NCBI GenBank assembly: GCA_964413025.1
Contig: CAYPRG010000004.1
Location: 1 to 35,451, forward strand
Source: an uncultured Planctomycetales bacterium
Lineage (GTDB): Bacteria > Omnitrophota > Gorgyraeia > Gygaellales > Profunditerraquicolaceae
Direction: 5' to 3'
DNA length: 35,451 nucleotides
Shown: positions 11,842-34,677 of the stretch, piece by piece
Numbering within the stretch: position 1 is the first letter of the stretch
Layout of the letters: every line of letters begins with the position of its first letter
Notes under the pieces: generated by a model
What the model saw: only the letters and a program-made list of their open reading frames with translations
Told to the model about the DNA's origin: nothing
Databases searched by the model: none
Program-made: the position numbers and the translations under genes

Positions 11842-11866
11842 GCCAATATAGGTTAGGAGGCAAACA

Positions 11867-12370
11867 ATGAAGGTTGCTATTTTAGTGGAAGATTACTATC
11901 AGGTGTTGGAGGCGTGGTATCCTTATTTACGTTTGCGGGAAGAGGGGACAGGGGTGGTTTTTGTGGGGACAGGCAAGAAGGAATACAAAAGCAGGGAAGG
12001 TTATCCTGTAACGGCAGATATGGCTGTCCAGGAAGCAAATCCGGATGATTTTGACGGAGTAATTATCCCGGGGGGCTACGCTCCTGATATTTTGAGAAGA
12101 TACAAAGAAGTGGCTGCTTTTGTTAAAGGTTTAAACGAAAAACATAAACTAGTCGCGGCGATATGCCACGGCGGATGGGTGCTGGTATCCGCTGGAATAT
12201 TGAAAGATAGAAAGGTCACGGCATTTTCTGCGATAAAGGACGATTTAATAAACGCCGGAGCTTCTTACCAGGATGACGAAGTGGTTGTTGACGGGAATCT
12301 GGTTACTTCCCGTAACCCCTATGATTTACCTGTTTTTTGTAAGGAGATAATCAAATTTTTGAAAAAATGA
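11867..12370 (+). CDS. DJ-1/PfpI-family protein (deglycase/protease-like)
   Basis: 167 aa with the nucleophile elbow AAICHGGWVL, and the segments DGVIIPGGYAPD and VVDGNLVTSRNPYDLP. Confidence 0.9.
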   Translation: MKVAILVEDYYQVLEAWYPYLRLREEGTGVVFVGTGKKEYKSREGYPVTADMAVQEANPDDFDGVIIPGGYAPDILRRYKEVAAFVKGLNEKHKLVAAICHGGWVLVSAGILKDRKVTAFSAIKDDLINAGASYQDDEVVVDGNLVTSRNPYDLPVFCKEIIKFLKK

Positions 12371-15264: not shown

Positions 15265-15265
15265 T

Positions 15266-16162: not shown

Positions 16163-17286
16163 TTAAAGTTGTAATCATCGGGGGAGGTTTTGGAGGCTTA
16201 AGCGCTAGCCGAAGGCTTTGCAAATCAGGGATTAAGCTTGAGGTAATCCTCATTGACAAAAAGCAAACCGTGGATTTCCTTCCCATGCTGCCTGATTGCA
16301 TAGGTAGAATGTTAAGTCCTGATTTTTTAAGCTATAGGATTGAAGATCTGGGGGGCAAGCTAGGTTTTAATTTTATAAATGGAGAAGTAATTACGTTGGA
16401 TTTAGATAAGAAGGAAGTTTCTGTTAATTCAGAGGGCTTGAAATATGACTACCTGATTATAGCCAGCGGCTCCGAGACCAACTTCTATGGAAACCAGGGT
16501 ATCAGGCAATATGCCTGTGTTTTAGGTGGGGTAAGCGATGCCAGAAAGATGGTTGATAGATTAAGCCAGGGTAAGTTTGATAACTATGTTGTCGGCGGAG
16601 GCGGTTATACCGGGATAGAGGTAGCTACTAATTTAAGGCTGTTTTTAAATAGGAACAATAAAAAGGGTAAGATAGTTATTGTTGAGCGCGCGCCGGAGAT
16701 ATTAGGGACACTTCCGGAGTGGATGAAAGAATATGTCGTTGATAATTTACGGAGGCTAGATATTGAAATCTCCGTTAATAATACTATTGATATAATAGAA
16801 GAGCGAAGGATTCATCTGTCCGAAGGGAAAACCCTGGATAATACTTTTGTGGTGTGGACAGCGGGAGTAAAAACCTCTAGTTTTATCCAGAATTTAAAAG
16901 TAGATAAAAATCCTCAAGGCAGGATCAAGGTAGACGAATATCTGCGCCTGAATAATAATTGTTTTGTTATCGGAGACGCGGCCAGTTTTTCGCATCAGGA
17001 AGGTATTCTAAGAATGTCGGTGCAGTTTGCTATTACCCAGGGGGATTCCGCGGCGGAAAATATAATCAGGGGTATAAAGGGGCTTGGCCTTCATAAATAC
17101 AAAGCGCGGGATTTAGGATATATCATCCCTATGGCTAATAACCGGTCCTGCGGTAGCATTCTAGGCTTAAATTTTAAAGGATCTTTACCGACGATACTCC
17201 ACTTTATCATGTGTATCTACCGTTCTTATGGCATAAGGAATAAAATCGGCATAATAAAAGATTTGTTGAAAAACAGGTGCCTTTGA
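16159..17286 (+). CDS. Type II NADH dehydrogenase (NDH-2)-like FAD/NAD(P)-binding oxidoreductase
   Basis: 375 aa with two Rossmann motifs, VVIIGGGFGGLSA and VVGGGGYTGIEVA, plus VIGDAA. It overlaps the prenyltransferase gene by 4 nt. Confidence 0.75.
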   Translation: MIKVVIIGGGFGGLSASRRLCKSGIKLEVILIDKKQTVDFLPMLPDCIGRMLSPDFLSYRIEDLGGKLGFNFINGEVITLDLDKKEVSVNSEGLKYDYLIIASGSETNFYGNQGIRQYACVLGGVSDARKMVDRLSQGKFDNYVVGGGGYTGIEVATNLRLFLNRNNKKGKIVIVERAPEILGTLPEWMKEYVVDNLRRLDIEISVNNTIDIIEERRIHLSEGKTLDNTFVVWTAGVKTSSFIQNLKVDKNPQGRIKVDEYLRLNNNCFVIGDAASFSHQEGILRMSVQFAITQGDSAAENIIRGIKGLGLHKYKARDLGYIIPMANNRSCGSILGLNFKGSLPTILHFIMCIYRSYGIRNKIGIIKDLLKNRCL

Positions 17287-17354
17287 ATATAGCTTTGTGA
17301 TTATCTGTGTTTGTATCGCCTTGATGCTTTTGGGCCCGGGAAAATTCAGCATAC

Positions 17355-18110
17355 ATGCTAAATTTTAAATCTATAAAAACTCGATTAATCCTCTATCTGG
17401 CTTGTTTCGCTGTTTTTTTGTCGATCGAGCAAAATGACGCTATGTTACTGGCTGCGGTATTTATCGCTGTTATCTGGAGCCTGGCGGTAGAGTCAGCGTT
17501 TTTGTATTTGAAAACAAAAGCCTTTCAAATCAGCGAAAGCTCTATTATCACCGGTTTAATTGTAGGTTTTGTATTCTCTAACGGTCAGTCCTGGTGGGTA
17601 TTGGCATTAGCTTCTTCGCTGGCAATCCTTTCAAAATATTTAATACGTTTTAAAATAAGGCACATATTTAATCCTGCAGCCTTGGGAATATTCTTGGCTA
17701 TTATTATTTTGGGAGCCCCTACGGAATGGGAGGGGACTTATTTCTGGTTTATAGTTTTGCCTTTCGGGATTTATTTCGCGAAAAAAATCAGGAAGATGGA
17801 GATACTTGCCGGCTATACGGTTGTTTTTCTGGCGCTGTTCGGAACCCAGGCGCTCTTCCAGAAAACCCCTGTCTGGCATATCTTTGGCTACCTGAATTAT
17901 TTCTATTTATTTGTTATGGTGATCGAGCCTATGACTACTCCTGTAAGGCCGTTGGGAAAGTTTCTTTTCGGCGCTGGCGTTTCCGCGCTTGTTTTTATCC
18001 TGACTGAACTGGGAGTTAGGTTTGACGTTGAACTCTTTAGCTTGTTAGCGATGAATATCGCTGTCCCGTTATTAAATATGATACCGCATAAAGAAGGAGG
18101 CAGGGTATGA
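17355..18110 (+). CDS. RnfD/NqrB-family-like integral membrane protein (orphan, short)
   Basis: 251 aa and polytopic. The segment SKYLIRFKIRHIFNPAALGIFLAII resembles the conserved (K/R)HIFNPA motif of RnfD/NqrB. I saw no flavinylation (S/T)GAT motif, and no other rnf/nqr genes are present. Confidence 0.5.
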   Translation: MLNFKSIKTRLILYLACFAVFLSIEQNDAMLLAAVFIAVIWSLAVESAFLYLKTKAFQISESSIITGLIVGFVFSNGQSWWVLALASSLAILSKYLIRFKIRHIFNPAALGIFLAIIILGAPTEWEGTYFWFIVLPFGIYFAKKIRKMEILAGYTVVFLALFGTQALFQKTPVWHIFGYLNYFYLFVMVIEPMTTPVRPLGKFLFGAGVSALVFILTELGVRFDVELFSLLAMNIAVPLLNMIPHKEGGRV

Positions 18111-18457
18111 AAAAAATAGGATTATTGCTGGTGTTATTTTTCGGGTTTACTTGTGCGGCATATGCCCATCCGCCGTCTGATATCAAAATAACCTTTGATG
18201 CCAAGACAAAAATGCTGCAGGCGGTGATTATGCATGGCGTGAGTAATCCCCGTAGCCATTATATCAAAAAAGTGGATGTGGGCTTAAACGGCAAAGAAAT
18301 AATCGAGCTCGATTTCTCCCGCCAGGACAATAATGAAAGCCAGGCTGTTACTTATCTCATGCCCGACGTAAAAGACGGTGATATTATTTCCGTTGAAGGC
18401 TATTGCAGCATAAGCGGCAAACTGCAGAAGGCAATCAAGGTAAAAGCAGAAAAGTAG
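18107..18457 (+). CDS. Small secreted protein of unknown function with a SOR-like His/His/His/Cys pattern
   Basis: 116 aa with a Sec signal peptide MKKIGLLLVLFFGFTCAAYA. The gene has an ATGA overlap with the upstream gene. The mature part begins HPPSD and contains MHGVSNPRSHYIKKV and EGYCSISGKL. Confidence 0.6.
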   Translation: MKKIGLLLVLFFGFTCAAYAHPPSDIKITFDAKTKMLQAVIMHGVSNPRSHYIKKVDVGLNGKEIIELDFSRQDNNESQAVTYLMPDVKDGDIISVEGYCSISGKLQKAIKVKAEK

Positions 18458-23057: not shown

Positions 23058-23086
23058 TTGACAGGTTTATCAATTTTTGTTAAATT
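23058..23086 (+). promoter_or_regulatory. Candidate sigma70 promoter between macB and the hydrogenase operon
   Basis: TTGACA (23058-23063), a 17-nt spacer ending in TGT, then TAAATT (23081-23086). The architecture matches the 18502 promoter. The caveat is that it lies upstream of a terminator-like hairpin. Confidence 0.4.
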
Positions 23087-23095: not shown

Positions 23096-23122
23096 AATCA
23101 CTCTTTAGGGAGTGATTTTTTT
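23096..23122 (+). terminator. Intrinsic terminator-like hairpin (macB operon terminator or hydrogenase leader attenuator)
   Basis: An 8-bp stem (AATCACTC at 23096-23103 pairing with GAGTGATT at 23110-23117) has a 6-nt loop and runs into a tract of seven T (23116-23122). Confidence 0.55.
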
Positions 23123-23184: not shown

Positions 23185-24630
23185 ATGAGATACGAAGCTA
23201 TGCTTTCAGCTACAATTTTTGTCCCGCTTTTGGGGGCGTTTATCCTTCCGCTTATAGGAAGGGTTTCTGTCCGCTTGCGGAATTTCTTTGCCTTCTGCTT
23301 TATTTTTGCCGCCTTTATTTTTTCTTTAAGCATGATAGGACCGGCCCTGTCAGGTAAAACTATCACCATTAATAGAGAACTGGCCATGGGGTTTAATTTT
23401 GTATTTTCCGCCGATATCCTGGCGGTTTTCATGGCCTGTATGTCGTCTTTGGTCAGCACGGTAATCATTTTGTATTCCTTTGGATATATAAGTCATTATG
23501 AGAATCAAAATGAATATTATTCCATGGTGGTGCTGTTTTTTGGCGCGATGATGGGCCTGGTTTTCTCGGGGAATCTGATTTTACTTTATGTATTCTGGGA
23601 GATTACCGCGATCACCAGCTGGCGCTTAATCGGTTTCTTCAGGGAGAAGACTCATGTATTGCGCGCGGATAAGGCATTCCTGGTTACGGTATTCGGAGCG
23701 GTGCTCATGCTTATTGGTTTCATCAGCATCTATCAGCAGACAGGTTCGTTTGACCTGGGCGTGATTAAGGAAAGCGCGAAAATAAACCCTATTTCAAATT
23801 TAGCTGTTGGTTTAATATTAGTGGGCATACTTTCCAAGTCGGCAACCCTGCCGTTACATACCTGGCTTCCTGACGCCGGCGTTGCTCCTTCTCCGGTTAC
23901 GGCGCTGCTTCACGCCGCGATCTTAGTCAAAATAGGAATATATGTTTTTGCTCGGCTTTTTATAGCCACTTTTTCACCCGCTGAATTTTGGCATACAGTT
24001 GTGCCGATAATAGCTGCTGCCAGCGCGCTAGTTTCGGCGGGAGCCGCGCTCGTTGAAACCGACTTAAAGAGGATCATCGCCTATTCTACTATCAGCCAGA
24101 TAGGGTTTATCTTTTTTGGATTAGCGGTAGGAAATGAAATTGCCGTGGCAGGAGGGTTATTGTATATACTTATGCACGGCATAGCCAAAGCCGGGCTTTT
24201 TCTTTGCGCCGGTATTATCGAACAGAATACAAAGACTAAAGATATCACAAAGTTAGGCGGGCTCATGGCTACCATGCCGGTTACCGCGGTTTCTTTCTTA
24301 TTCTGCGCCTTTTCGGTAATGGGCATTCCGCCTTTCGGAGGATTCTTCAGCAAATATATGGTTTTTGCCGGAGCAGTCAATGGCGGGCAGATTTGGATCG
24401 GTTTTGTGTTTTTGTTGGGTGCTGTAATGACCATACTTTATCTTTTCAGGGCGTTTAATTTAATATTTCTCGGCGAGGCAAATATACCCGGGGTGAAAGA
24501 AGCCAGTCCGACAATGGTTACTAGCGTAGCTATATTAGGCGTGTTTTCGTTACTCAGCGGCATTTTTATCTGGTATCCGGCTAAATTTGCTTTGCTTGGG
24601 GTTTGGCAGATGCTGGGGATAGTCAAATGA
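23185..24630 (+). CDS. Hydrogenase membrane subunit, NuoN/NuoM/MrpD-like antiporter-type subunit 1
   Basis: 481 aa and polytopic, with proton-antiporter family motifs FWEITAITSW, SKSATLPLHTWLPDAGVAPSPVTALLHAAILVKIG, MHGIAKAGLFL and PPFGGFFSK. Confidence 0.85.
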   Translation: MRYEAMLSATIFVPLLGAFILPLIGRVSVRLRNFFAFCFIFAAFIFSLSMIGPALSGKTITINRELAMGFNFVFSADILAVFMACMSSLVSTVIILYSFGYISHYENQNEYYSMVVLFFGAMMGLVFSGNLILLYVFWEITAITSWRLIGFFREKTHVLRADKAFLVTVFGAVLMLIGFISIYQQTGSFDLGVIKESAKINPISNLAVGLILVGILSKSATLPLHTWLPDAGVAPSPVTALLHAAILVKIGIYVFARLFIATFSPAEFWHTVVPIIAAASALVSAGAALVETDLKRIIAYSTISQIGFIFFGLAVGNEIAVAGGLLYILMHGIAKAGLFLCAGIIEQNTKTKDITKLGGLMATMPVTAVSFLFCAFSVMGIPPFGGFFSKYMVFAGAVNGGQIWIGFVFLLGAVMTILYLFRAFNLIFLGEANIPGVKEASPTMVTSVAILGVFSLLSGIFIWYPAKFALLGVWQMLGIVK

Positions 24631-26456
24631 CGGAAAAATCCTTACTCTTACCTATTATATTACCTTTATGCGCGGGTATCATTGCTCTGATATTGCGTAA
24701 AAGGTTCCGCATAATAATTGAAACAATCGCGTTATCCGCTACTCTGGCAAATCTTTTAATCGCCATAGCCTTATTCAAAAGTAATTTTAGTTTTTCTCTT
24801 CCCTGGGCGGGATTGGGGTTGGATTTTTCGCTCAGGATTTATCACTTCAGCGCTTTTATCGTTCTCTCCGCGGCAGCTTTCGCGTTTTTGATTACTTTAT
24901 ATTCTATGGTATTTATGCGGGATAAGCCCTGCTTAAACCAATTCTACGGTTATTTCTTGATAACTCTTGGCCTTGCCAGCGGCGCGGTGCTTGCCGATAA
25001 TCTGGTGATCATGCTTTTTTTCTGGGAAGGTTTATTATTGACCCTTTTCGGCATGATTGCTATAGGCAACAAGAATGCTTTTAAGACCGCTACCAAGGCG
25101 TTTATTATCATCGGTATAGCTGATTTATGTTTTATGCTTGGCATCGGGCTCACCGGCCACCTTGCCGGCACGTTAGCTATGTCTCAGATAAATCTTCCTC
25201 TGGGGGGATTAGGCAGCATCGCATTTATTCTTTTGATGATTGGAGCGATCGCTAAAGCCGGCTCAATGCCTTTCCACAGCTGGATTCCTGATGCCGCCGT
25301 TGACGCGCCCCTTCCTTTTATGGCTTTAATACCGGCTGCGTTTGAGAAGCTCCTGGGAATATATTTTCTTACCAGGATCTCGCTTGACTTGTTCAAGTTG
25401 AGCCATGATTCCTGGATAAGCGTTTTGCTCATGGCCATCGGCTCAATCACAATAGTACTTGCGGTAATGATGGCTTTAATACAGAAGGATTATAAAAAAT
25501 TACTTTCTTACCATGCTATAAGCCAGGTGGGTTATATGATTTTAGGCATTGGTACCGCAGTTCCGGTGGGCATTGTCGGCGGGTTGTTCCATATGATTAA
25601 TAATGCGCTTTATAAGAGTTGTTTGTTTCTTACCGGAGGTGCGGTAGAGAAGCAGGCCGGTACAGCTAACCTGGAAAAGCTGGGTGGAATCGGGAAAAAG
25701 ATGCCGATAACCTTCGCCTGTTTTATTATCACCGCGGTTTCAATATCCGGAGTGCCGCCTTTTAACGGATTTTTTTCAAAAGAGCTGGTATATGACGCAG
25801 CGCTGGAGAGAGGGCTGATTTTTTATATTGCCGCGGTGGTCGGTTCATTCTTCACCGCCGCGTCGTTCTTAAAACTTGGGCACGCGGCTTTTCTCGGGAA
25901 AATAAGCGAAGAGAACAAAAAGGTTAAAGAAGTTTCTTTTTCGATGTTATTCCCTATGATCGTGATCGCCTTTTTATGTATTATTTTCGGGGTATTTAAT
26001 TCCTTGCCGTTAAATATGCTTATCCAGCCGATACTCGGAGAAACCAGATTAGAGGGGAAGGATTTCTCGGGATTTCCAACTAATTTTATGCTTGTGGCAG
26101 TTACTTTAGTGGTATTAATCGGGGCTTTATTGAATCATCTCTGGGGGGTAAAACGAAAAGGAAGCGGGCTTAAAGCTGTGGACCATATCCATTATGCCCC
26201 GGTTTTATCGACTATCTATGATAAAGCGGAAAAGAGGTATTTTGATCCTTTTGATATAGGTTTAAAATTTACCGGCGCGTTCTCAAAGGTTGCTTTCCGC
26301 TGTGATAGGGCGATAGATTGGTTGTATGATAATTTGACAGTTAAGTTGATTTTCGTATTCACCGATCAGATAAAGAAGTTGCATAACGGCAACTATTCGA
26401 CATATCTGATTTGGTCTTTGCTGGGGTTGGTTTTAGTTATTATTTTTTTAGTATAA
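24627..26456 (+). CDS. Hydrogenase membrane subunit, NuoL/MrpA-like antiporter-type subunit with a C-terminal extension
   Basis: 609 aa from ATG 24627 (ATGA overlap). It carries FWEGLLL, AKAGSMPFHSWIPDAAVDAP, NNALYKSCLFL and PPFNGFFSK. A roughly 100-aa largely polar/amphipathic tail ends in a final TM (YLIWSLLGLVLVIIFLV), as in the NuoL lateral helix and anchor. Confidence 0.85.
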   Translation: MTEKSLLLPIILPLCAGIIALILRKRFRIIIETIALSATLANLLIAIALFKSNFSFSLPWAGLGLDFSLRIYHFSAFIVLSAAAFAFLITLYSMVFMRDKPCLNQFYGYFLITLGLASGAVLADNLVIMLFFWEGLLLTLFGMIAIGNKNAFKTATKAFIIIGIADLCFMLGIGLTGHLAGTLAMSQINLPLGGLGSIAFILLMIGAIAKAGSMPFHSWIPDAAVDAPLPFMALIPAAFEKLLGIYFLTRISLDLFKLSHDSWISVLLMAIGSITIVLAVMMALIQKDYKKLLSYHAISQVGYMILGIGTAVPVGIVGGLFHMINNALYKSCLFLTGGAVEKQAGTANLEKLGGIGKKMPITFACFIITAVSISGVPPFNGFFSKELVYDAALERGLIFYIAAVVGSFFTAASFLKLGHAAFLGKISEENKKVKEVSFSMLFPMIVIAFLCIIFGVFNSLPLNMLIQPILGETRLEGKDFSGFPTNFMLVAVTLVVLIGALLNHLWGVKRKGSGLKAVDHIHYAPVLSTIYDKAEKRYFDPFDIGLKFTGAFSKVAFRCDRAIDWLYDNLTVKLIFVFTDQIKKLHNGNYSTYLIWSLLGLVLVIIFLV

Positions 26457-26472
26457 TAATAGGGGAGAGGTT

Positions 26473-27906
26473 GTGTATTCTTCGTTAATATTACTGCCGT
26501 TTTTCGGGGTGATAATTTTAAATCTGCCGTTTCGGGCATTGATGAGAAAGGCCGCTTTCTGGCTTTGCCTGTTGATAGTGCTTCTCCAGATTTGCTTAAT
26601 CCTTTTTCCTCAGATTTGCTGCTTTAGCGATAAATTGGATACCTTGGGCTCATTTTTTAAATTTGATTTTGCGGTGGATAACCTTAGCCGGGTGATGCTG
26701 TTTTGTATAGGCATAGTTTTGTTTACCGCGCTCTTCGTGCAAAGAAATAACTGCAGGGACGAGGAGAAGATTTTTAATTTCGTAAACGTTTCCCTTCTTA
26801 TTTTATGCGGGATGAACGGCGTGGTAATGGTAAAGGATATTTTTTCCTTGTATGTATTCTTGGAGATTACCGCGGTCAGTTCATTTATCTTAATCGCTTT
26901 TAATAAAGAAAGAGATGCGTTTGAGGGCGCGTTTAAGTATATCGTCCTTTCCGCGGTAGCCACGGTGCTTATGCTTGCGGCGATTGCTTTGTTTCTGGTT
27001 GTTTCCGGAGACACCGGTTTTAGTTCCATAAGTTCCGCCTTAAAGATTTCCCATGACCGTTTCTTTATCGGACTTGCCGTGGGCATCTTTCTTTGCGCAT
27101 GTTTTATCAAGTCTGGTTTGGTGCCGTTTCACGGCTGGGTTGCCGATGCTTATTCCAGCGCGCCGCCTGCGGTATCCGTGCTTCTGGCAGGAGTAGTGAC
27201 TAAGACAGTAGGTATATACACATTAATAAGAGTCGTAAATTCAATATTTGGTTTTAGCGATTCGCTCAAACACCTTCTTCTTGCGGTGGGAGCAATTTCA
27301 ATTGTGGTGGGAGCCCTGGCAGCTCTCGGACAAAAGGATTTTAAGAGGATGCTTGCCTATTCAAGCATAAGCCAGGTGGGCTACATTGTTTTAGGTTTAG
27401 GGACCGGCACCGCGCTGGGATTGACCGGAGCTATCTTCCATTTGTTTAACCACTCGATTTTTAAATCACTTTTATTTGTAAATTCCGCGGCTGTGGAGTC
27501 GGAGACCGGCACCAGGGATATGGATAAACTTTCCGGCCTGGCAAAAAAGATGCCGTTGACCGGAGTGACTTCTATTTTAGGGAGCTTGTCCTGCGCGGGG
27601 ATCCCGCCTTTGGCGGGCTTCTGGAGTAAATTGCTTATCATTATGGCTCTATGGTTATCCGGTTTTCACGGCTACGCGTTTATAGCGGTTTTAGCCAGCA
27701 TCTTGACCCTGGCATACTTTCTTTATTGGCAAAGAAGCGTTTTTTTTGGGATATTAAAAGAAGACTTGGTGAATGTAAAGGAGGCAGGTTTTGGGTTGGT
27801 ATTTCCTGCTTTGATACTTGCGGTGATAGTTGTAGGCGCAGGATTATTTTTCCCTTTCATAATCAATTATTTTACATTGCCAATTGGAAATATTTTAGGA
27901 GGATAG
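26473..27906 (+). CDS. Hydrogenase membrane subunit, NuoM/NuoN/MrpD-like antiporter-type subunit 3
   Basis: 477 aa with a GTG start after GGAGAGG. It carries FLEITAVSSF, IKSGLVPFHGWVADAYSSAPPAVSVLLAGVVTKTVG, FNHSIFKSLLFV and PPLAGFWSK. Confidence 0.85.
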   Translation: MYSSLILLPFFGVIILNLPFRALMRKAAFWLCLLIVLLQICLILFPQICCFSDKLDTLGSFFKFDFAVDNLSRVMLFCIGIVLFTALFVQRNNCRDEEKIFNFVNVSLLILCGMNGVVMVKDIFSLYVFLEITAVSSFILIAFNKERDAFEGAFKYIVLSAVATVLMLAAIALFLVVSGDTGFSSISSALKISHDRFFIGLAVGIFLCACFIKSGLVPFHGWVADAYSSAPPAVSVLLAGVVTKTVGIYTLIRVVNSIFGFSDSLKHLLLAVGAISIVVGALAALGQKDFKRMLAYSSISQVGYIVLGLGTGTALGLTGAIFHLFNHSIFKSLLFVNSAAVESETGTRDMDKLSGLAKKMPLTGVTSILGSLSCAGIPPLAGFWSKLLIIMALWLSGFHGYAFIAVLASILTLAYFLYWQRSVFFGILKEDLVNVKEAGFGLVFPALILAVIVVGAGLFFPFIINYFTLPIGNILGG

Positions 27907-27907
27907 G

Positions 27908-28396
27908 GTGTATCTAGATATAGTTATTCTTGCGGTATTACTTCTGACTTCGCTGTGGACGGTAATGACCAGAAGTATCTTGCGTTCCGCGATGGGCCTG
28001 GCGCTTACCAGCGTTATATTGGCTATAGTAATGTTCAGGCTGAATTCGCCCCTGGCCGCGGTTTTTGAGCTTTCGGTTTGCGCGGGGCTTATTTCGGTGT
28101 TATTTGTCAGCACCATAAGTATCACCCAGCCATACACAACAGAGGAAATTTTAAAGCGGATGAAGGATATGTTTGCCAGGTTCCGTTTTTTGCCGTTAAT
28201 CATATTGGTATCAGGGCTCGGGTTATTTTTTGTAAGCATAAAGCCGGCGATAAATTTACCTGCTCCGGAAGTAATAAAGGACGCCAGGGTGATATTGTGG
28301 AACTTCAGGGGCCTTGATCTGATGGGCCAGGTTTTAATATTGCTGACTGGAGTTTTTGGCATCGTGGTATTATTCAAGGAAAGGCTAAAAAGGTGA
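27908..28396 (+). CDS. Hydrogenase membrane subunit, NuoJ-like / MbhD-MbhE (MnhB-related)-like
   Basis: 162 aa with five predicted TM segments and a GTG start after AGGAGG. The N-terminal half (LAAVFELSVCAGLISVLFVSTISI) resembles NuoJ/MbhD TM3. The C-terminal segment NFRGLDLMGQVLILLTGVFGIVVLF resembles the MnhB-type motif. Confidence 0.65.
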   Translation: MYLDIVILAVLLLTSLWTVMTRSILRSAMGLALTSVILAIVMFRLNSPLAAVFELSVCAGLISVLFVSTISITQPYTTEEILKRMKDMFARFRFLPLIILVSGLGLFFVSIKPAINLPAPEVIKDARVILWNFRGLDLMGQVLILLTGVFGIVVLFKERLKR

Positions 28397-28713
28397 GCAG
28401 CGAGACTGTAAATTTATTCTTTTGTTATGGTTTTTTTGTAGCCATGCTTTTTGTAATCGGCATTTACTGTGTCCTGGCTACTTTTAATTTAATCAGGGCA
28501 TTGATCGGCCTGGAGATTTTAATCAAGGCAGTCACGCTTCTCTTAATAGCTGTGGGCTATATAACCGCTCATGAAGCCCTGGCTCAGAGTTTGGTGATTA
28601 CTTTAATAGTGATTGAGGTTGTGGTGATTACCATATCGGTAGCCGTAGTTGTCGGGATACACAGTTACAATAAATCGCTTGATGTGAGAAAAATAAGGAA
28701 CTTAAAAGGATAG
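28393..28713 (+). CDS. Hydrogenase membrane subunit, NuoK/MnhC/MbhG-like
   Basis: 106 aa with three TM segments. It carries NLIRALIGLEILIKAVTLLLI, which includes the conserved membrane Glu, and VITLIVIEVVVI. Confidence 0.75.
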   Translation: MSSETVNLFFCYGFFVAMLFVIGIYCVLATFNLIRALIGLEILIKAVTLLLIAVGYITAHEALAQSLVITLIVIEVVVITISVAVVVGIHSYNKSLDVRKIRNLKG

Positions 28714-28719
28714 AAAAAG

Positions 28720-29052
28720 ATGGAGAATTGGTTATTGACGCCGCCGGTTGCTTTTATCGTGATTTTGTTTGTTATCTGGCTGCTTTCACATTTACTTTCC
28801 AGGTTAGCGTTTAAGGCAGGAAAGCATTCTAGGGGTGAAGGCGAAGCCTATGCTTGCGGAGAGTGCAACTATGACAATATGGCCCAGCCTGATTATAGCA
28901 ATGTTTTTCCTTATGCTTTTTTCTTTACGCTTGCGCACGTGGCTACTTTAATCATGACTACCGTGCCTACGGAGACCATACAGTCGTTTGCCATGGTAGT
29001 CATATATATACTCAGCGCTGTATTAGGGCTGTATATTTTATTCAGGAAGTGA
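28720..29052 (+). CDS. Hydrogenase membrane subunit, NuoA/MbhI-like
   Basis: 110 aa with three TM segments. The loop motif AYACGE parallels the YECG/YESG motif of NuoA, followed by FPYAFFFTLAHVATL. The gene lies directly upstream of the NuoB-like gene, as in nuo operons. Confidence 0.55.
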   Translation: MENWLLTPPVAFIVILFVIWLLSHLLSRLAFKAGKHSRGEGEAYACGECNYDNMAQPDYSNVFPYAFFFTLAHVATLIMTTVPTETIQSFAMVVIYILSAVLGLYILFRK

Positions 29053-29058
29053 GGATTT

Positions 29059-29502
29059 ATGGGATTGATAAAAAAAGCGGTCAACTGGGCAAGGATTAAA
29101 TCCCCCTGGATACTGCATTTTAATACCGGGGCCTGCAACGCCTGCGATATTGAGATTATCGCCGCCCTTACTCCGCGCTATGACCTGGAACGTTTCGGGG
29201 TGATATTAAAAGGTACTCCCCGGCATGCCGATATACTGGTTTGCTCCGGCCCGGTGACAAGACAGATCGAAGATAGATTAATCAGGATTTATGAGCAGAT
29301 GGCTGAGCCGAAGTTTGTAATAGCAGTGGGCACCTGCGCCTGTTCAGGAGGAGTTTTTAAAGGTTGCTATAATGTAAAGGGGGGGATCAAGTCGGTTATC
29401 CCGGTATCGGCATTTATTCCCGGTTGCCCGGTAAGCCCCAAGGCAATAATTGACGGCGTAGTTAAGCTGTTAAGCAGCTTAGAAGAGAAGCCAAAAAAAT
29501 AA
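29059..29502 (+). CDS. [NiFe] hydrogenase small subunit, NuoB/HycG/MbhJ-like
   Basis: 147 aa with four Cys in the group-4 pattern: TGACNACDIEI (CxxC), GTCACSGG and PGCPVSP. Confidence 0.9.
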   Translation: MGLIKKAVNWARIKSPWILHFNTGACNACDIEIIAALTPRYDLERFGVILKGTPRHADILVCSGPVTRQIEDRLIRIYEQMAEPKFVIAVGTCACSGGVFKGCYNVKGGIKSVIPVSAFIPGCPVSPKAIIDGVVKLLSSLEEKPKK

Positions 29503-29515
29503 CTGGAGGATAGAA

Positions 29516-29995
29516 GTGCCTTACGAAGAAGATATCAAGCAGAAGTTAACAAGTAAATTTGCTTATCTTGAAGGCAATGCCAGGGTTACCCGGCCAAGGC
29601 GCATATTTTTAGAAGCCGGAGCTGAAAACTTCTCTGAAATTTTTGATTATCTGGTCAAGCAGCTGAATTTTACGCATTTATGCACCATTACCGGCCTTGA
29701 CGAACAGGATAAATTAAGTTTCATTTATCACTTGGCAGGAGAATCGGGAGTCTTGGTGAATTTAAAAACCAGCGTTCCCAAAGAAAACCCGGTATTAAAA
29801 AGCGTTATTCCGTATTTTGCCGGAGCAGAAATTTATGAAAGGGAATTAGTAGATTTATTTGGGGCGAAGGTGGAAGGCCTGCCCGCAGGGAACCGCTATC
29901 CTCTGACAGATGACTGGCCGGTTGGCCAGTTCCCCTTGCGCAAAGATTGGAAACCCGCTGCGGATAAAGAAAACGAGGTGGAAAAAGATGCCTGA
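29516..29995 (+). CDS. Hydrogenase subunit, NuoC/MbhK-like
   Basis: 159 aa with a GTG start after GGAGGA. It carries the NuoC 30-kDa family motif AEIYERELVDLFGAKVEG...PLTDDWP and overlaps the large-subunit start. Confidence 0.8.
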   Translation: MPYEEDIKQKLTSKFAYLEGNARVTRPRRIFLEAGAENFSEIFDYLVKQLNFTHLCTITGLDEQDKLSFIYHLAGESGVLVNLKTSVPKENPVLKSVIPYFAGAEIYERELVDLFGAKVEGLPAGNRYPLTDDWPVGQFPLRKDWKPAADKENEVEKDA

Positions 29996-31226
29996 TACAA
30001 ATAAATTTAAAATACCTTTTGGGCCGCAACATCCGGCATTAAAGGAACCGGAAAGTTTCAGTATTGCTTTAAAAGGCGAAAAGATAATGGGTGTGGATAT
30101 CCGCCTGGGGTACAATCATAGGGGGATAGAAAAGGCCTGTGAAGAGAGGACGTATATCCAGGACCTTTACCTGATCGAGCGTATCTGCGGGATATGTTCG
30201 CATTCTCATTCTACTTGTTTTGTCCAGGCTGTTGAGGAGATTGCCGCGGTGGAAGTCCCCAAGAGGGCTCTTTATATCCGTACCTTGATCGCGGAATTAG
30301 AGCGCGTGCATAGCCATCTTCTATGGTTGGGTGTGGCCGGGCATGAAATAGGTTTTGATACATTGCTTATGTATGCCTGGCGGGACCGCGAAGTAGTAAT
30401 GGATTTACTGGCGCTTCTTACCGGAAACCGGGTTAATTATGGCATAAATACTATCGGCGGAGTAAGGCGCGATATATCCGGCGAGCAGATAGAGGAGATA
30501 TTAAAGGGAGTAGGTATTCTTGAGGAGAGGACTAAATATTACATTGAAGTAGCCACTCAGGAAACTACCATTATTAAAAGATTATCCGGGGTAGGAGTAG
30601 TCTCTTATGAAGATGCCTTGAAATTAGATGCGGTAGGCCCGACCGCGCGGGCCTCCGGAGTAGACCGGGATGTCCGCCGCGATGATCCGTATGCGGTTTA
30701 TGGAGAACTTCATTTTGATGTAATTACTGATAAACATTGCGATGTCTATGGCCGGACTGTTGTAAGGGTAAAAGAGTTAATGGAGTCTTACAAGATAATT
30801 CGCCAGTGCCTGAAACAATTACCTGATGGCCCGATAGCGGTAAAAGTCCCGCGCAAGATTCCCGCCGGGGAAGCCATAAGCCGTTATGAGGCGCCCAGGG
30901 GCGAGGATGTGCATTATGTAAAATCAAACGGCAGCGAAAAGCCCGAAAGGGTTAAAGTAAGAGCGCCTACCCTGGCCAATGTGCAGGCAGTTAAGCATAT
31001 GTTGAAGGATAGGTTCCTGGCGGATATGCCGATAGTTATTGCCGCTATAGACCCATGTTTTTCCTGCACTGACAGGCTTATTTCCGTTAAAGGGGTAAAC
31101 AGTAAAAATAAAAAAATCATCACTTGGGAAGCCTTGCGTGCTTATGGTATAGATTGGTATAGAGGGCGCGGCATAGATTTTACGAAGATAAGTAATGATC
31201 TTAGAAAGAGGTTAGAGGGTATTTAA
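29988..31226 (+). CDS. Group-4 [NiFe] hydrogenase large (catalytic) subunit, NuoD/HycE/MbhL-like
   Basis: 412 aa from ATG 29988. The N-terminus FGPQHPA is NuoD-like. Both Ni-Fe cysteine pairs are present: RICGICSHSH (30180-30209) and DPCFSCTDR (31050-31076). A 49-aa C-terminal extension follows. Confidence 0.93.
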   Translation: MPDTNKFKIPFGPQHPALKEPESFSIALKGEKIMGVDIRLGYNHRGIEKACEERTYIQDLYLIERICGICSHSHSTCFVQAVEEIAAVEVPKRALYIRTLIAELERVHSHLLWLGVAGHEIGFDTLLMYAWRDREVVMDLLALLTGNRVNYGINTIGGVRRDISGEQIEEILKGVGILEERTKYYIEVATQETTIIKRLSGVGVVSYEDALKLDAVGPTARASGVDRDVRRDDPYAVYGELHFDVITDKHCDVYGRTVVRVKELMESYKIIRQCLKQLPDGPIAVKVPRKIPAGEAISRYEAPRGEDVHYVKSNGSEKPERVKVRAPTLANVQAVKHMLKDRFLADMPIVIAAIDPCFSCTDRLISVKGVNSKNKKIITWEALRAYGIDWYRGRGIDFTKISNDLRKRLEGI

Positions 31227-32167
31227 TGGCTGGAGCACTTTTTTCCATTTTAGTTTTTCCCGGGCTTTTATTCGTGAGTCTCTTCGGCTTGATCGCGGAA
31301 TTCATAGACAGGAAAATATATGCCAGGCTGCAGAACAGGGTAGGGCCGCCTTGGTTCCAGACATTCGCGGATTTCCTTAAGTTGTTGGGAAAAGAAGATA
31401 TCATTCCGACTGAGGCTAACCAAAAGATGTTTAGCCTGGCGCCGGTATTTGCCCTTACTTCGGTGGTAACGGTTTTTCTCTATATTCCTCTCTGGAAAGC
31501 CGAAGCCTTGTTTTCCTTCAACGGGGATATAATTATGGTGCTTTATCTATTGACTATCCCCACCCTGGCATTTTTTATCTGCGGCTGGTATTCAAAGTCA
31601 TTATTTTCCAGAATTGGCTCTGTGCGTTGTGTCATTCAGCTGTTTGCTTATGAGGTACCGCTTTTTATGAGCATATTGGCTTCAGCGTTATTAGCGGATA
31701 CATGGTCATTAAGGGATATGGTTGTTTTCTATACCAGGCACCCGTATTACTTTTTGTTTAATCTGATAGGTTTCGGGGTATCTCTGGTGGCATTGCTGGG
31801 AAAATTGGAGAAAGTGCCTTTTGATATTCCGGAAGCCGAAACAGAGGTGGTTGCCGGAGCTTTTACCGAATACAGCGGAAGGCTGCTGGCAATATTACGG
31901 TTGACAATAAACGTAGAAATGGTAGTCGGGGCCTCGCTTTTAGGAGCGGTGTTTTTTCCTTTCGGATTGGGGTTTGGCCCTTACGTAGGGTTTATTATAT
32001 TCATATTTAAGACCTTGATGATAATGGCCATGCTTTCATTATTGCGCACTATTGTGGCGCGTTTGCGTATCGATCAGATGATTGATTTTTGCTGGAAGTA
32101 CCTGGTGCCGCTTTCGTTTATTCAGTTATTGCTTAATCTTATTGCGAAAGGAATTTTGTCCCGATGA
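31226..32167 (+). CDS. Hydrogenase membrane subunit, NuoH/HycD/MbhM-like
   Basis: 313 aa and polytopic. It carries DRKIYARLQNRVGPP and EAETEVVAGAFTEYSG, hallmarks of NuoH. It has a TAATG overlap with the large subunit. Confidence 0.9.
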   Translation: MAGALFSILVFPGLLFVSLFGLIAEFIDRKIYARLQNRVGPPWFQTFADFLKLLGKEDIIPTEANQKMFSLAPVFALTSVVTVFLYIPLWKAEALFSFNGDIIMVLYLLTIPTLAFFICGWYSKSLFSRIGSVRCVIQLFAYEVPLFMSILASALLADTWSLRDMVVFYTRHPYYFLFNLIGFGVSLVALLGKLEKVPFDIPEAETEVVAGAFTEYSGRLLAILRLTINVEMVVGASLLGAVFFPFGLGFGPYVGFIIFIFKTLMIMAMLSLLRTIVARLRIDQMIDFCWKYLVPLSFIQLLLNLIAKGILSR

Positions 32168-32547
32168 GGCCCGGTAAAATGCTTAGAGAAGTTTTGGGTT
32201 CGTTTTTTAAGAAACCTGCGACTAATCTTTATCCCGCGGAAAAACTGGAGATGCCTAAGAATTTCAGGGGAAAGCTGGTTTTTTATCCTGATAAATGCAT
32301 CGGGTGTAAATTGTGCATGAAGGATTGCCCTACCGGCGCCATAACCATTAATAAAATCGGAGAGAAGCAGTTTGAAGCAGTTATAGAGCTGGATAAATGC
32401 ATATATTGCGCGCAGTGCGTGGATTCCTGCCCCAGGAAAGCCCTGGAAGCCACAAAAGAGGTTGAGTTAGCGCAGTTAGACGCCAAGAAGTTAAAGGTGA
32501 TTTTCAGTGGTAACCCTCAAAACGGCACTAAAAAAGAGACTCTCTGA
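32164..32547 (+). CDS. 2x[4Fe-4S] ferredoxin-type subunit, NuoI/HycF/MbhN-like
   Basis: 127 aa with two cluster motifs, CIGCKLCMKDCP and CIYCAQCVDSCP. It has an ATGA overlap with the NuoH-like gene. Confidence 0.9.
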   Translation: MRPGKMLREVLGSFFKKPATNLYPAEKLEMPKNFRGKLVFYPDKCIGCKLCMKDCPTGAITINKIGEKQFEAVIELDKCIYCAQCVDSCPRKALEATKEVELAQLDAKKLKVIFSGNPQNGTKKETL

Positions 32548-33004
32548 TTCCGGAAGAATTGCCCTGCTCGGCGTCGGTTCTGAATTAAGAGGCGATGATG
32601 CAGCCGGGCTCTTGGTAGCCGAATACCTCCGTAAATCCCCCCCCAAAAATATAAGACAAAAAAAACTTAAAGTTTTTTTTGGCTCAACCGCTCCGGAAAA
32701 TCTTACCGGAGAAATCAAGAAATTTAAGCCCGATTGCCTGATTATAGTTGATTCCGCTGATATGAATAGGAGGCCGGGTATGGTTAAGCTGATTGACCCC
32801 GATAAAGTCGGAGGTATTTCTTTTTGCACCCACCAATTACCCTTGAAGATATTAACGGATTACCTGGTCCAATCCATCGGTTGCGAAATTATAATTATCG
32901 GCATACAGCCGGGAAAGATTGATTTTGGTATAGTTCCCTCAAAAAAGATAGAAAGGTCTGCGAGGCATATTTCGGGAATGATCAAAGAAATTTTAAGAAA
33001 ATAA
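32507..33004 (+). CDS. hycI: Hydrogenase maturation endopeptidase, HycI-type
   Basis: 165 aa with a GTG start. It tracks the HycI pattern closely: LLGVGSELRGDDAAG, GSTAPEN, IIVDSADMNRRPGMVKLIDPD, THQLPL and GIQPG. The Asp/Asp/His metal ligands are present. Confidence 0.9.
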   Translation: MVTLKTALKKRLSDSGRIALLGVGSELRGDDAAGLLVAEYLRKSPPKNIRQKKLKVFFGSTAPENLTGEIKKFKPDCLIIVDSADMNRRPGMVKLIDPDKVGGISFCTHQLPLKILTDYLVQSIGCEIIIIGIQPGKIDFGIVPSKKIERSARHISGMIKEILRK

Positions 33005-33037
33005 AAGCGTATGGAGCATCAAAAAACGGAGGAAAAA

Positions 33038-34003
33038 ATGCAATTAAAAGAGATAACATTAAAAGATTTGATTACGGAACAATTCATTAAAGAGGAGGCG
33101 GATAATATTTCTTCTTTAGTGGGAGGCGGTTTGGCGATTAATGCTTTATCAGGCGGAGTGGATTCTTCCTGTGTTACTATGTTGGGCCATAAAGCGCTGG
33201 GGAAGAGGCTTCTGACCTATTTTATTGATAATGGTTTAATGCGCCAGGATGAGCCGCGAAAAATTGCCGAACTGTTTAATAAATCGGGCGTTAGCGTAGA
33301 AATTGTTGACGCGCAGGAGGAATTCTTTAAGGCCTTAAAAGGAATAACCGACCCCGAGGAAAAAAGAGAAGCCATTACCCAGACGTTTTATAAGGATGTT
33401 TTTGGCAAGTTAATCAAGAAAAGCGGGGCAAAATATCTTTTGCAGGGGACAATCCTGACTGACATCGATGAGACGGTGGCGGGGATAAAAAGGCAGCACA
33501 ATGTTTTTGAACAGTTGGGTATTGACCCTCAGGAAACCTTCGGCTATAAAATCATTGAACCCCTGGTGCGCTTGCGTAAAGACGGCGTAAGAAAAGTGGC
33601 GCTGGCATTGGGATTGCCGGAATCAATCTATAGCCGGATGCCTTTTCCCGGCCCGGCTCTTTCGGCAAGGATAATCGGGGAAGTAACCCCGGAAAAAATA
33701 AAATTAATCAGGCTTGCCACGGTCATTACTGAAGAAGAATTAGCTGCGGTAAAAGCTTTCCAATATCTGGCGATACTGCATCAGGACAGGGTGACCGGTA
33801 TGCGTAACGGAAAAAGAGATTTTGGATTGCAAATTGAAATCAGGTGTTGGGACAGCCTGGATGCGCGATCCGCCAAGCCCACAAAGCTGCCTTATGAAAC
33901 CCTGGACAAATTAGCCAATAGAATGGTGGTTGAGGTTCCGGGAGTAGTAAGCGTAACTTATAATATTGCTTCTAAGCCGCCCTCTACCATGGAGGCGATT
34001 TAA
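33038..34003 (+). CDS. GMP-synthase-like PP-loop ATP pyrophosphatase with dimerisation domain and no glutamine amidotransferase domain
   Basis: It has the PP-loop SGGVDSS, then FIDNGLMRQDE, TDPEEKREAI, LLQGTILTDIDE, EPLVRLRKDGVR and PFPGPALSARI, and ends in SKPPSTMEAI. I prefer ATG 33038 (GGAGG 5 nt upstream) to ATG 33011; both share the frame and stop. Confidence 0.8.
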   Translation: MQLKEITLKDLITEQFIKEEADNISSLVGGGLAINALSGGVDSSCVTMLGHKALGKRLLTYFIDNGLMRQDEPRKIAELFNKSGVSVEIVDAQEEFFKALKGITDPEEKREAITQTFYKDVFGKLIKKSGAKYLLQGTILTDIDETVAGIKRQHNVFEQLGIDPQETFGYKIIEPLVRLRKDGVRKVALALGLPESIYSRMPFPGPALSARIIGEVTPEKIKLIRLATVITEEELAAVKAFQYLAILHQDRVTGMRNGKRDFGLQIEIRCWDSLDARSAKPTKLPYETLDKLANRMVVEVPGVVSVTYNIASKPPSTMEAI

Positions 34004-34011
34004 GAAAATAA

Positions 34012-34068
34012 TTGACAATGGTTGAATTATGATTATAATTGTAAGTGAGCGTTTACTTACAATTATAA
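34012..34068 (+). promoter_or_regulatory. Sigma70 promoter with an overlapping perfect palindromic operator (probable TetR autoregulation site)
   Basis: TTGACA (34012-34017), a 16-nt spacer, then TATAAT (34034-39). A perfect 14-bp inverted repeat, TTATAATTGTAAGT (34033-34046) and ACTTACAATTATAA (34055-34068), has an 8-nt spacer and covers the -10 element and the start site. Confidence 0.65.
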
Positions 34069-34083: not shown

Positions 34084-34677
34084 ATGAGTAAAAATTTGAC
34101 TGTCAATCAACATAAGATAGTAGAAGCCGCCAGGAAGATTATAGTATCAAGGGGCATGGATAATCTTACTATTCGGGAAATTGCCAGCGAGCTTAAACTT
34201 ACAGATGGGGCTTTGTACAGGCATTTCAAGAGCAAAAAAGAAATAATCAGCCTGCTTATTGATGACATCGAAAAAACTTTATTAGCTACGGTTGACGCGG
34301 CAGCGAAAAAAAGCGACGAGCCTCTAAAGAAATTAGAAAATATTTTTTTATCGCATATTTCTTATTCCAAGCAGAGAAAAGGGGTATCTTTTATCGTTAT
34401 TAACGAGACCCTCAGCCTTAAAGATAAAAGTTTACAGCGTAAGATGTTTAATGTTATCGGCAGGTATTTGGAAAAAATCAGGCAGATACTTAAGGAGGGC
34501 GTGTCAGCCGGAAGCTTCAGGAGGAATGTCGACATAAGTTCTGCGAGTATTGTCTTTTTTGGGATTATACAGGCGCAGGTTATGCTATGGGCTATGAGCG
34601 GTTACCAGTATTCTTTTAAGAAAACATCTATTGAGCACTTGCTTGATATTTTTGAGAAGGGAATAATGTTTTTATAG
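34084..34677 (+). CDS. TetR/AcrR-family transcriptional regulator
   Basis: 197 aa. The N-terminal HTH is GMDNLTIREIASELKLTDGALYRHFKSKKEII, followed by an all-helical C-terminal ligand domain. Confidence 0.9.
   Translation: MSKNLTVNQHKIVEAARKIIVSRGMDNLTIREIASELKLTDGALYRHFKSKKEIISLLIDDIEKTLLATVDAAAKKSDEPLKKLENIFLSHISYSKQRKGVSFIVINETLSLKDKSLQRKMFNVIGRYLEKIRQILKEGVSAGSFRRNVDISSASIVFFGIIQAQVMLWAMSGYQYSFKKTSIEHLLDIFEKGIMFL

Follow-up and report, generated by a model that had tools for sequence, protein, structure and literature searches.

The presumed origin of complex I is the union of a membrane-bound hydrogenase with an Mrp-type antiporter. To our knowledge, the MBH of Pyrococcus is the only hydrogenase of this descent that has both a multi-subunit arm and a solved structure; its arm contains fewer pumps than complex I, and the attachment site of the peripheral module differs. 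Pfam PF00346 hits have served as a 'complex I' marker in Omnitrophota, which matters for annotation. Here, a stretch of 35,451 nt of contig CAYPRG010000004.1 (GCA_964413025.1, referred to as the window) was analyzed that contains, at positions 23185–33004, twelve tightly packed plus-strand genes with intergenic gaps of −41 to +16 nt, in agreement with the packed and overlapping genes noted in a preliminary description of this DNA. The gene order is AP1-AP2-AP3-J-K-A-B-C-D-H-I-protease (AP, antiporter-like subunit; P, protease), and the products are eleven structural subunits and a HycI-type maturation protease. The cluster quite probably encodes a complete, membrane-bound, energy-converting group 4 [NiFe] hydrogenase that would act as a reversible ferredoxin:H+ oxidoreductase with an ion-pumping, complex-I-like arm.

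Several described enzymes are relevant for comparison. In the structures of MBH and MBS, MbhD/E/G/I were already seen to correspond structurally to NuoJ, to NuoK, and to the loop of NuoA (PMC7684303, PMC8165549). The lateral helix (HL) spans one subunit and resides on MbhI in MBH, whereas it spans three subunits and resides on NuoL in complex I (PMC8165549, PMC7684303). An 11-subunit, Ni-Fe-bearing ancestor was postulated by Moparthi and Hagerhall, with NuoA and NuoJ seemingly absent from hydrogenases (PMC3144371), and a COG-based analysis from 2026 found no NuoA relatives (PMC13399641). Formate hydrogenlyase 2 (FHL-2), with a five-subunit arm, has been discussed as a link to complex I (PMC13645896). 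Three antiporter-like subunits are typical of Hyf and of group 4b formate/CO systems (PMC13582414); they are not unique to the present cluster, as Hyf/FHL-2 has three too. The Heimdallarchaeial enzymes of groups 4j, 4m, 4p, and 4q are predicted to resemble complex I in architecture, though with shorter arms, and to use ferredoxin for H2 production at a Ni-Fe site (bioRxiv 10.1101/2024.07.04.601786). By description, they resemble the cluster in concept, with a NuoBCDI-type arm, a competent Ni-Fe subunit, and a complex-I-like membrane arm.

Ech of group 4e has six subunits with one antiporter-like protein, compared with eleven structural subunits and three antiporter-like ones in the cluster, and Ehr/Mbx-type complexes have lost the Ni-Fe-binding cysteines that are retained here. 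In the literature searched, the 4g enzyme with a biochemical characterization was Ech2 of Thermoanaerobacter kivui, which couples ferredoxin-dependent H2 evolution reversibly to H+ translocation (PMC9356269, PMC13582414). Ech2 bears the same HydDB label, 4g, as the family described here, and the reaction shown for it is the one proposed for the cluster; it has eight subunits (A1, A2, B–F, and HycB2), and no homologues of NuoA, NuoJ, or NuoK have been described for it. Group 4g is polyphyletic and loosely clustered (PMC13582414), and the shared label therefore implies no shared architecture.

The enzymes of Ca. Velamenicoccus archaeovorus and other Omnitrophota were classed as 4g by HydDB (PMC10066038, PMC8542988), and related enzymes from Saganbacteria and Elusimicrobia were named 'Mbh-Mrp type' (PMC6349859, bioRxiv 10.1101/765248). 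The family is thus already catalogued under these names but biochemically uncharacterized, and as its members routinely have the gene order described below, it is an uncharacterized family rather than an unknown one. In the literature searched, no paper was found that describes NuoA/NuoJ homologues or a NuoL-type helix of the hydrogenase family, and the complex-I-like inventory appears not to have been spelled out previously for bacteria. Kuenenia 'HOX' was considered as a possible hydrogen:quinone oxidoreductase and dropped, because in the papers retrieved the name denotes hydroxylamine oxidase.

Active site and peripheral subunits

Relatives of the cluster were collected by a scan of one genome per GTDB species with a NuoA-like profile, which gave 85 genomes, from which 80 loci were fetched. 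Translation of the large subunit D gave the N-terminal Ni-Fe motif RICGICSHSH at 30180–30209 and the C-terminal motif DPCFSCTDR at 31050–31076, exactly as specified before. All four cysteines are kept in the orthologues (73/73 for the N-terminal and 62/62 for the C-terminal motif). The C-terminal motif is followed by a 49-residue extension (31077–31223), which is presumably cleaved off; in orthologues it comprises 38–50 aa, in one case 71 aa. The HycI-family gene is found at the operon end in most loci that extend that far, and with the extension and this gene the processing feature of group 4 enzymes is present at the gene level. D further contains a hydrogenase-type 'PALKEPE' segment after the N-terminal GPQHP motif.

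In the small subunit B, cysteines C26/C29 (GACNAC), C92/C94 (GTCACSGG), and C122 (PGCP) form a CxxC...CxC...C pattern, in line with the CxxC...C...C pattern reported earlier; four cysteines are predicted to ligate one proximal [4Fe-4S] cluster. C and D are encoded by separate genes, and I, with its two ferredoxin-type clusters, is the presumed electron entry point. The features of group 4 [NiFe] hydrogenases are thus present: RxCGxC and DPCxxC motifs, NuoB/C/I/H-like subunits, and antiporter-like subunits. The preliminary description had taken the enzyme for a genuine hydrogenase, which is borne out by the conservation of the four cysteines, the C-terminal extension, and the protease gene in the operon.

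Among structures in the Protein Data Bank (PDB), D matched MbhL best (2e-98, 333 bits), followed by HycE (1e-82) and Nqo4 (2e-65). Compared with E. coli proteins, B, C, and D scored higher on the Hyf counterparts than on those of Nuo (for B, 120 bits to HyfI and 101 bits to NuoB), and I scored virtually the same on HyfH (56.6 bits) and NuoI (56.1 bits). The NCBIfam models gave 154 bits for B on the NuoB subfamily model (over the cut-off), approximately 79 bits for C on both FpoC and NuoC, and 355.7 bits for D on the NuoD equivalog, just below its cut-off of 360; E. coli HyfG reached 207.4 bits on the latter. The membrane anchor H obtained 230.5 bits on the NuoH model, compared with 98.8 bits for E. 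coli HyfC. Its best PDB match was MbhM (137.5 bits), with NdhA (124 bits), NuoH (117.5 bits), and Nqo8 close behind, whereas MbsM (83 bits) and HycD (79 bits) scored far lower. Of the E. coli proteins, NuoH (117.5 bits) scored above HyfC (92 bits) with H, as did NuoK (30 bits) above HyfE (4.8 bits) with K.

The NuoD score just under the cut-off is one of the points that would speak for a quinone-reducing, 11-subunit complex I (NDH-1-like or Ehr-like) with relic cysteine motifs. Others are that the Joint Genome Institute (JGI) names many orthologues NuoD, NuoA, or NuoL, and that the window contains genes for a UbiA prenyltransferase and an NDH-2-like protein, a hint at possible quinone synthesis. 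However, cluster D keeps the Ni-Fe cysteines and comes with a dedicated protease gene instead of quinone binding, and the CxxC of B is of the hydrogenase type. The catalytic subunits as a whole are nearer to hydrogenases than to complex I, and the second, C-terminal pair of cysteines is missing from 11-subunit complex I enzymes (PMC3144371). A quinone reductase was rejected on the conserved Ni-Fe ligands, the C-terminal extension, and the HycI protease, and we assign it hardly any probability. Public annotations of the orthologues vary and include NADH-quinone oxidoreductase subunit D, A, or L, formate hydrogenlyase subunit 3, MnhD, membrane-bound hydrogenase subunit alpha, and hypothetical protein.

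Small membrane subunits A, J, and K

Searches of PDB, Pfam, and NCBIfam with the single sequence of A revealed nothing significant. At the family level, Pfam Oxidored_q4 (NuoA) was matched by 29 of 30 close relatives and by 33 of 52 distant ones, and JGI calls many A relatives NuoA. A search of 1.84 billion representative proteins with the A family profile gave 192 clusters, nearly all of approximately 100–115 aa. A profile built from the distant half of the family matched Nqo7 from T. thermophilus (1.6e-5), ND3 (2.6e-5), and E. coli NuoA (1.3e-4) over all three transmembrane helices (TM), whereas the match to MbhI (E = 0.051) was limited to TM1 and the following loop. In this TM1-TM2 loop, Y44-A-C46-G-E aligns with the ND3/NuoA motif P-(Y/F)-E-(C/S)-G, and the cysteine that corresponds to the ND3 loop cysteine is invariant, as are Y44, A45, G47, and H73. 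The AlphaFold2 (AF2) model of A showed TM1 (8–29), an unstructured loop of 33 residues (30–62), TM2 (63–81), and TM3 (87–108); Foldseek with this model (pTM 0.47) retrieved no meaningful match, with ND3 chains only at E values of about 8–9. Judged from the family profiles, A is a remote but significant full-length homologue of NuoA/ND3, consistent with the 3-TM NuoA-like protein with an AYACGE loop described before.

J reaches 32.8 bits on Oxidored_q3 (NuoJ; cut-off 33.2), and all of its 22 orthologues match this family (best, 1e-12), 20 of the 22 also matching MbhD. The J family profile matched MbsD (7e-11) and MbhD (4e-9) across the first three helices and E. coli NuoJ (8e-5) across residues 10–109. 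The positions of its five predicted helices agree closely with those in E. coli NuoJ, and E54 is invariant. On the basis of these family and profile matches and of the helix positions, J is a NuoJ-type fusion of Pyrococcus MbhD and MbhE and not an Mrp-specific subunit. K gave PDB matches to MbsG (1e-10), MbhG (1e-8), NdhE (3e-8), and NuoK (4e-6), and its membrane glutamates E41 (corresponding to NuoK E36) and E75 are invariant in 73/73 orthologues.

Together, the matches to NuoJ and NuoA rule out that the 162-aa and 110-aa proteins are Mrp-specific. The 5-TM NuoJ/MbhD-E-like and the NuoK-like proteins of the preliminary description were likewise recovered, the former from Oxidored_q3 and the MbhD and NuoJ profile matches, the latter from Oxidored_q2 (59.9 bits) and both membrane glutamates.

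Antiporter-like subunits and the lateral helix

AP1, AP2, and AP3 all match Pfam Proton_antipo_M and have the channel residues of NuoL/M/N, namely a Glu in TM5 and one Lys each in TM7 and TM12, as expected for the three NuoL/M/N-like proteins noted earlier. In AP1, these residues are E139, K218, and K390; AP1 is of the 14-TM type, lacks a C-terminal extension, and resembles NuoL, HyfD, and the N-terminal part of MrpA (best E. coli scores, 190 bits to HyfD and 178 bits to NuoL). AP3 has conserved E131, K213, and K386 and gave 235–282 bits on the NCBIfam models of MrpD, NuoM, and NuoN. AP2 contains E142, K218, and K393 and, in addition, the NuoL-specific Asp (D174, corresponding to NuoL D178).

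AP2 aligns end to end with the NCBIfam NuoL models (residues 13–616 with positions 4–609 of 615), and its best PDB match was Nqo12 (172 bits). The AF2 model (pLDDT 83.7, pTM 0.82) contains helices at 487–511 (TM15), 519–535, 541–585, and 590–608 (TM16), of which the 45-residue helix 541–585 is the lateral helix. Foldseek with AP2 yielded MrpA, NuoL, Nqo12, NdhF, and ND5 at TMq 0.73–0.80 over approximately 640 columns, whereas MbhH aligned over 522 columns only, i.e. the 14-TM core. The TM15-TM16 spacing is 85 aa, compared with 80 aa in E. coli NuoL. When only the C-terminal 167 residues of AP2 were compared with PDB sequences, no relevant match was obtained; the homology of the lateral helix was assigned from the full-length alignments, the AF2 model, and the hydropathy spacing.

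In three relatives (P0304, P0318, and P0348, one of them labeled Margulisiibacteriota), AP1 and AP2 are naturally fused into a protein of approximately 1000 aa, which suggests that the two are neighbors in the complex. The fusion proteins lack the first one or two helices of the second subunit.

Conservation of the operon in other genomes

The order AP1-AP2-AP3-J-K-A-B-C-D-H-I is identical in every one of the 80 fetched loci that is long enough to show it, and large subunits of related loci are 63–87% identical to D of the window. The survey of related genomes thus found the same 11-gene order throughout. Most carriers are Omnitrophota, among them the complete genome of Ca. Velamenicoccus archaeovorus LiM, in which the same operon encodes a large subunit with 79% identity to D (locus L049). 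According to the submitters' labels, further carriers are Elusimicrobia, WOR-1 (Saganbacteria), Ratteibacteria, Verrucomicrobia, Pelobacter, Brevinematales, Spirochaetota, several Bacillota, and Myxococcota. The phylum labels of several loci are doubtful (e.g. Patescibacteria, Planctomycetales, and Rikenella).

Within the cluster, there are no MrpE/F/G-, formate dehydrogenase (Fdh)-, carbon monoxide dehydrogenase (CODH)-, or HycB-like genes and no further open reading frame (ORF). Clustering of the flanking genes of the 80 loci revealed no conserved partner and again no MrpE/F/G, Fdh, CODH, or HycB. The earlier statement that Mrp small subunits and a dehydrogenase partner are missing therefore holds for the cluster, and none is conserved beside the operons of relatives. 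In some Bacillota loci, hypF and hypD lie upstream of the operon.

These data bear on the possibility that the cluster encodes the hydrogenase half of a formate- or CO-dependent hydrogenlyase, like FHL-2 or Coo, with the dehydrogenase encoded elsewhere in the genome. The three antiporter-like subunits, typical of Hyf and the group 4b formate/CO systems (PMC13582414), are in favor of it, as are the highest E. coli scores of AP1 to HyfD and of AP2 to HyfB, the latter with a long C-terminal extension also in the Hyf complex (FHL-2, group 4a) of E. coli and Pectobacterium. However, the large subunit of Hyf is a NuoC-D fusion, and Hyf works with HyfA and a formate dehydrogenase, whereas C and D of the cluster are unfused, as opposed to Hyc/Hyf, and genes for Fdh, CODH, HycB, or HyfA are neither in the operon nor conserved beside it in the 80 loci. 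Hyf has HyfE in place of separate NuoJ and NuoK and no NuoA homologue, whereas the cluster has all three, and the scores of cluster H and K with NuoH and NuoK far exceed those with HyfC and HyfE. As the operon is also self-contained and constant in composition across phyla, we regard a hydrogenlyase half as improbable.

Arrangement of the membrane arm

Homologues of all eleven core subunits of complex I/NDH-1 (NuoA-D and NuoH-N) are found in the cluster, as the initial inventory of A, B, C, D, H, I, J, K, L, M, and N had stated. The enzyme is thus a hydrogenase by active site and maturation, with an Mbh-like core and a complex-I-like membrane inventory. Its placement 'between energy-converting hydrogenases and complex I' refers to architecture and scores and makes no statement on phylogeny. 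Likenesses to complex I comprise the TM topology of A, J, and K, a lateral helix of equal length, the two glutamates of NuoK and the one of NuoJ, the antiporter Glu/Lys set, and the gene order A-B-C-D-H-I, whereas the J-K and L/M/N genes are upstream in the cluster and downstream in nuo. The A-B-C-D-H-I order, which the preliminary description had equated with nuo, is present but not discriminating, because mbhI-J-K-L-M-N has the same order.

We favor, with moderate confidence, an arm arranged as in complex I, in which H would be followed by A/J/K and then by AP3, AP1, and AP2, clamped by the AP2 lateral helix. Three observations speak for this order: A is homologous to NuoA along its entire length, the lateral helix has the location and length known from NuoL, and AP1 and AP2 are fused in some relatives. 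That the arm has the true geometry of complex I, with H, A/J/K, and three antiporter-like subunits clamped by a NuoL lateral helix, is suggested more tentatively.

The same subunits could also adopt an Mbh-like geometry, in which the H/A module docks beside an antiporter-like subunit and J/K are distal, as in Pyrococcus MBH/MBS; the enzyme would in effect be an Mbh with a lost Na+ module and multiplied MbhH. The MBH of Pyrococcus furiosus (group 4d, PDB 6CFW) is indeed the best solved relative of D (MbhL, 333 bits) and H (MbhM, 137.5 bits). The N-terminal half of J is nearer to MbsD/MbhD than to NuoJ, K is closest to MbsG and MbhG, and AP2 aligns over its full length with MbsH' too. The order J-K-A-B-C-D-H-I mirrors mbhD/E-G-I-J-K-L-M-N, C and D are unfused in both, both lack a dehydrogenase partner, and ferredoxin is the donor of MBH. 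On the other hand, MBH has one antiporter-like subunit and the cluster three, the Mrp-derived Na+ module MbhA/B/C/F of MBH is absent from the cluster, and MbhD and MbhE are separate proteins, represented by one NuoJ-like protein in the cluster. Furthermore, A matches NuoA across three TMs and MbhI over TM1 and the loop only (0.051 versus 1.6e-5 for Nqo7). The lateral helix follows the NuoL order TM15-HL-TM16 with NuoL spacing on AP2, whereas MBH has it on the small subunit MbhI (PMC7684303), whose counterpart in the cluster is the 3-TM NuoA homologue. For these reasons, an Mbh-like geometry is judged rather unlikely.

Proposed mechanism and direction of the reaction

In the proposed mechanism, reduced ferredoxin would dock on I, and electrons would pass from the I clusters via the B cluster to the Ni-Fe site in D, where two H+ would be reduced to H2. 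The reaction would be sensed by a cluster of interface loops, comprising the A loop with the invariant YACGE, the β1-β2 loop of D, and the TM5-6 loop of H. The signal would then travel along a charged axis formed by acidic residues of H, A, J, and K to the three antiporter-like subunits and result in the export of H+ (or Na+). In reverse, an ion gradient could drive H2-dependent ferredoxin reduction. By analogy, T. kivui Ech2, which couples ferredoxin-dependent H2 evolution to H+ translocation (PMC9356269), supports such a function.

Several points weigh against a ferredoxin-dependent ion pump with a complex-I-type arm. The complex-I-type geometry is deduced from features of single chains, and the catalytic and anchor subunits are closest in sequence to Mbh, whose peripheral module docks differently. 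The homology of A to NuoA is remote (the window protein reached E = 0.012 on Oxidored_q4), and where E. coli NuoA has D79 and E81 in TM2, the A family has the invariant His73 and Ala (A75). Ferredoxin is the presumed donor because I is NuoI/MbhN-like and no gene for a partner accompanies the operon, but a partner could be encoded elsewhere. Finally, the redox span from ferredoxin to H+ is approximately 36–86 mV under standard conditions (PMC9356269), too little to export four protons per H2 when the enzyme runs forward. As a consequence, not all channels would pump, or the stoichiometry would be lower or involve ion exchange, or the enzyme would operate mainly in reverse.

Under the last option, an ion gradient dissipated through up to four channels would in the cell drive the reduction of low-potential ferredoxin by H2, and the reduced ferredoxin would serve the Wood-Ljungdahl pathway or other reductive reactions. 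Such gradient-driven reduction is carried out by the reversible Ech-type enzymes of methanogens and acetogens (PMC9356269), and many 4g-bearing Omnitrophota are predicted acetogens (PMC10066038). A high number of channels suits an uphill, gradient-consuming reaction better than a weakly exergonic pump, and gradient-generating machines (H+/Na+-pyrophosphatase and F-ATPase) are close neighbors in the window and in relatives. However, studies on metagenome-assembled genomes assume H2 evolution for redox balance (PMC8542988, PMC6349859, bioRxiv 10.1101/765248), and no Wood-Ljungdahl genes were found within the window. A mainly reverse operation is therefore considered unlikely, though less so than an Mbh-like geometry, and a reversible ferredoxin:H+ oxidoreductase remains the preferred assignment.

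Gene layout and genomic neighborhood

The features of the cluster are compiled in Table 1.

Table 1. Genes of the hydrogenase cluster in the window, with positions and principal matches.
Product	Position	Strand	Basis of assignment
AP1, antiporter-like subunit, 481 aa	23185..24630	+	Proton_antipo_M 250 bits, Proton_antipo_N 29 bits (Pfam)
AP2, NuoL-type antiporter-like subunit, 609 aa (617 aa from TTG 24603)	24627..26456	+	Proton_antipo_M, NCBIfam NuoL
AP3, NuoM/NuoN/MrpD-like antiporter-like subunit, 477 aa	26473..27906	+	Proton_antipo_M 230 bits
J, 5-TM NuoJ homologue, 162 aa	27908..28396	+	Oxidored_q3 32.8 bits, MbhD 20 bits
K, 3-TM NuoK/MbhG/MrpC homologue, 106 aa	28393..28713	+	Oxidored_q2 59.9 bits
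A, 3-TM NuoA/ND3 homologue, 110 aa	28720..29052	+	Family profiles; no significant hit alone
B, hydrogenase small subunit (NuoB/MbhJ-like), 147 aa	29059..29502	+	Oxidored_q6 106.8 bits
C, NuoC/MbhK-like subunit, 159 aa	29516..29995	+	Complex1_30kDa 83.4 bits
D, [NiFe] large subunit, 412 aa	29988..31226	+	Complex1_49kDa and NiFeSe_Hases (Pfam)
H, NuoH/MbhM-like membrane anchor, 313 aa	31226..32167	+	NADHdh 251 bits
I, NuoI/MbhN-like 2x[4Fe-4S] ferredoxin-type subunit, 127 aa	32164..32547	+	Pfam Fer4 families, two stretches
P, HycI-type hydrogenase maturation endopeptidase, 165 aa	32507..33004	+	Pfam HycI 48.5 bits (cut-off 23)

The program-made ORF of AP2 begins at TTG 24603 and overlaps AP1 by 28 nt. 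The start is probably ATG 24627, since homologues comprise 608–612 aa and this start gives an ATGA stop-start overlap with AP1. A promoter and terminator scan gave counts in the region that were not above the shuffled expectation; given these chance-level counts, the promoter-like site at 23058–23086 and the hairpin at 23096–23117 upstream of the operon are suggestions only. A perfect sigma-70 consensus (12/12; TTGACA, 16-nt spacer, TATAAT) lies at 34012–34039, just upstream of a TetR-family gene (34084–34677). Six nt after the protease gene, 33011–34003 encodes a protein with a PP-loop/GMP-synthase C-terminal domain, which may be cotranscribed with the protease gene; related loci do not have it at this place.

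In Omnitrophota, the operon is often flanked by ATP synthase genes and by an exbB-exbD-H+/Na+-pyrophosphatase trio. The trio is located directly downstream of the operon in 17–18 related loci, and these genes therefore tend to travel together. In the window, 98–7515 contains atpA, atpG, atpD, an 83-aa atpC-like ORF (3898–4149), exbB/exbD-like genes, and a membrane pyrophosphatase gene (5236–7515), and the exbB-exbD-pyrophosphatase block is approximately 16 kb away from the operon.

The gene for a UbiA-family prenyltransferase (15248–16162) overlaps that of the NDH-2-like flavoprotein (16159–17286), and both are followed, up to 18457, by genes for a 251-aa RnfD/NqrB-family membrane protein and a 116-aa secreted protein without a Pfam match. 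The block 15248–18457 may represent a quinone-related module, which would be located in a lineage usually described as fermentative or acetogenic. At 11446–13287, an oxidative-stress trio of desulfoferrodoxin/neelaredoxin, a DJ-1/PfpI protein, and a thioredoxin-reductase-like flavoprotein is encoded, which fits an oxygen-exposed anaerobe.

Implications

The cluster shows, in a present-day organism, the type of enzyme that is regarded as the evolutionary source of complex I. The family is widespread, strongly conserved, and strictly syntenic over several bacterial phyla, and it combines a genuine Ni-Fe site with homologues of every core membrane subunit of complex I, in operons that are publicly called NADH-quinone oxidoreductase, formate hydrogenlyase, Mrp, or Mbh. 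With it, ideas on the sequence of steps by which complex I evolved can be tested on an actual bacterial enzyme, as can the number of ions moved by the low-energy reaction from ferredoxin to H2. If the arm has the geometry of complex I, the family would be a tractable model of how three or four ion channels are coupled to a reaction with so little driving force, possibly by fractional stoichiometry, partial Na+/H+ exchange, or obligate reverse operation. The proton-pumping arm would then have been assembled, or have been able to function, on a hydrogenase before quinone chemistry arose.

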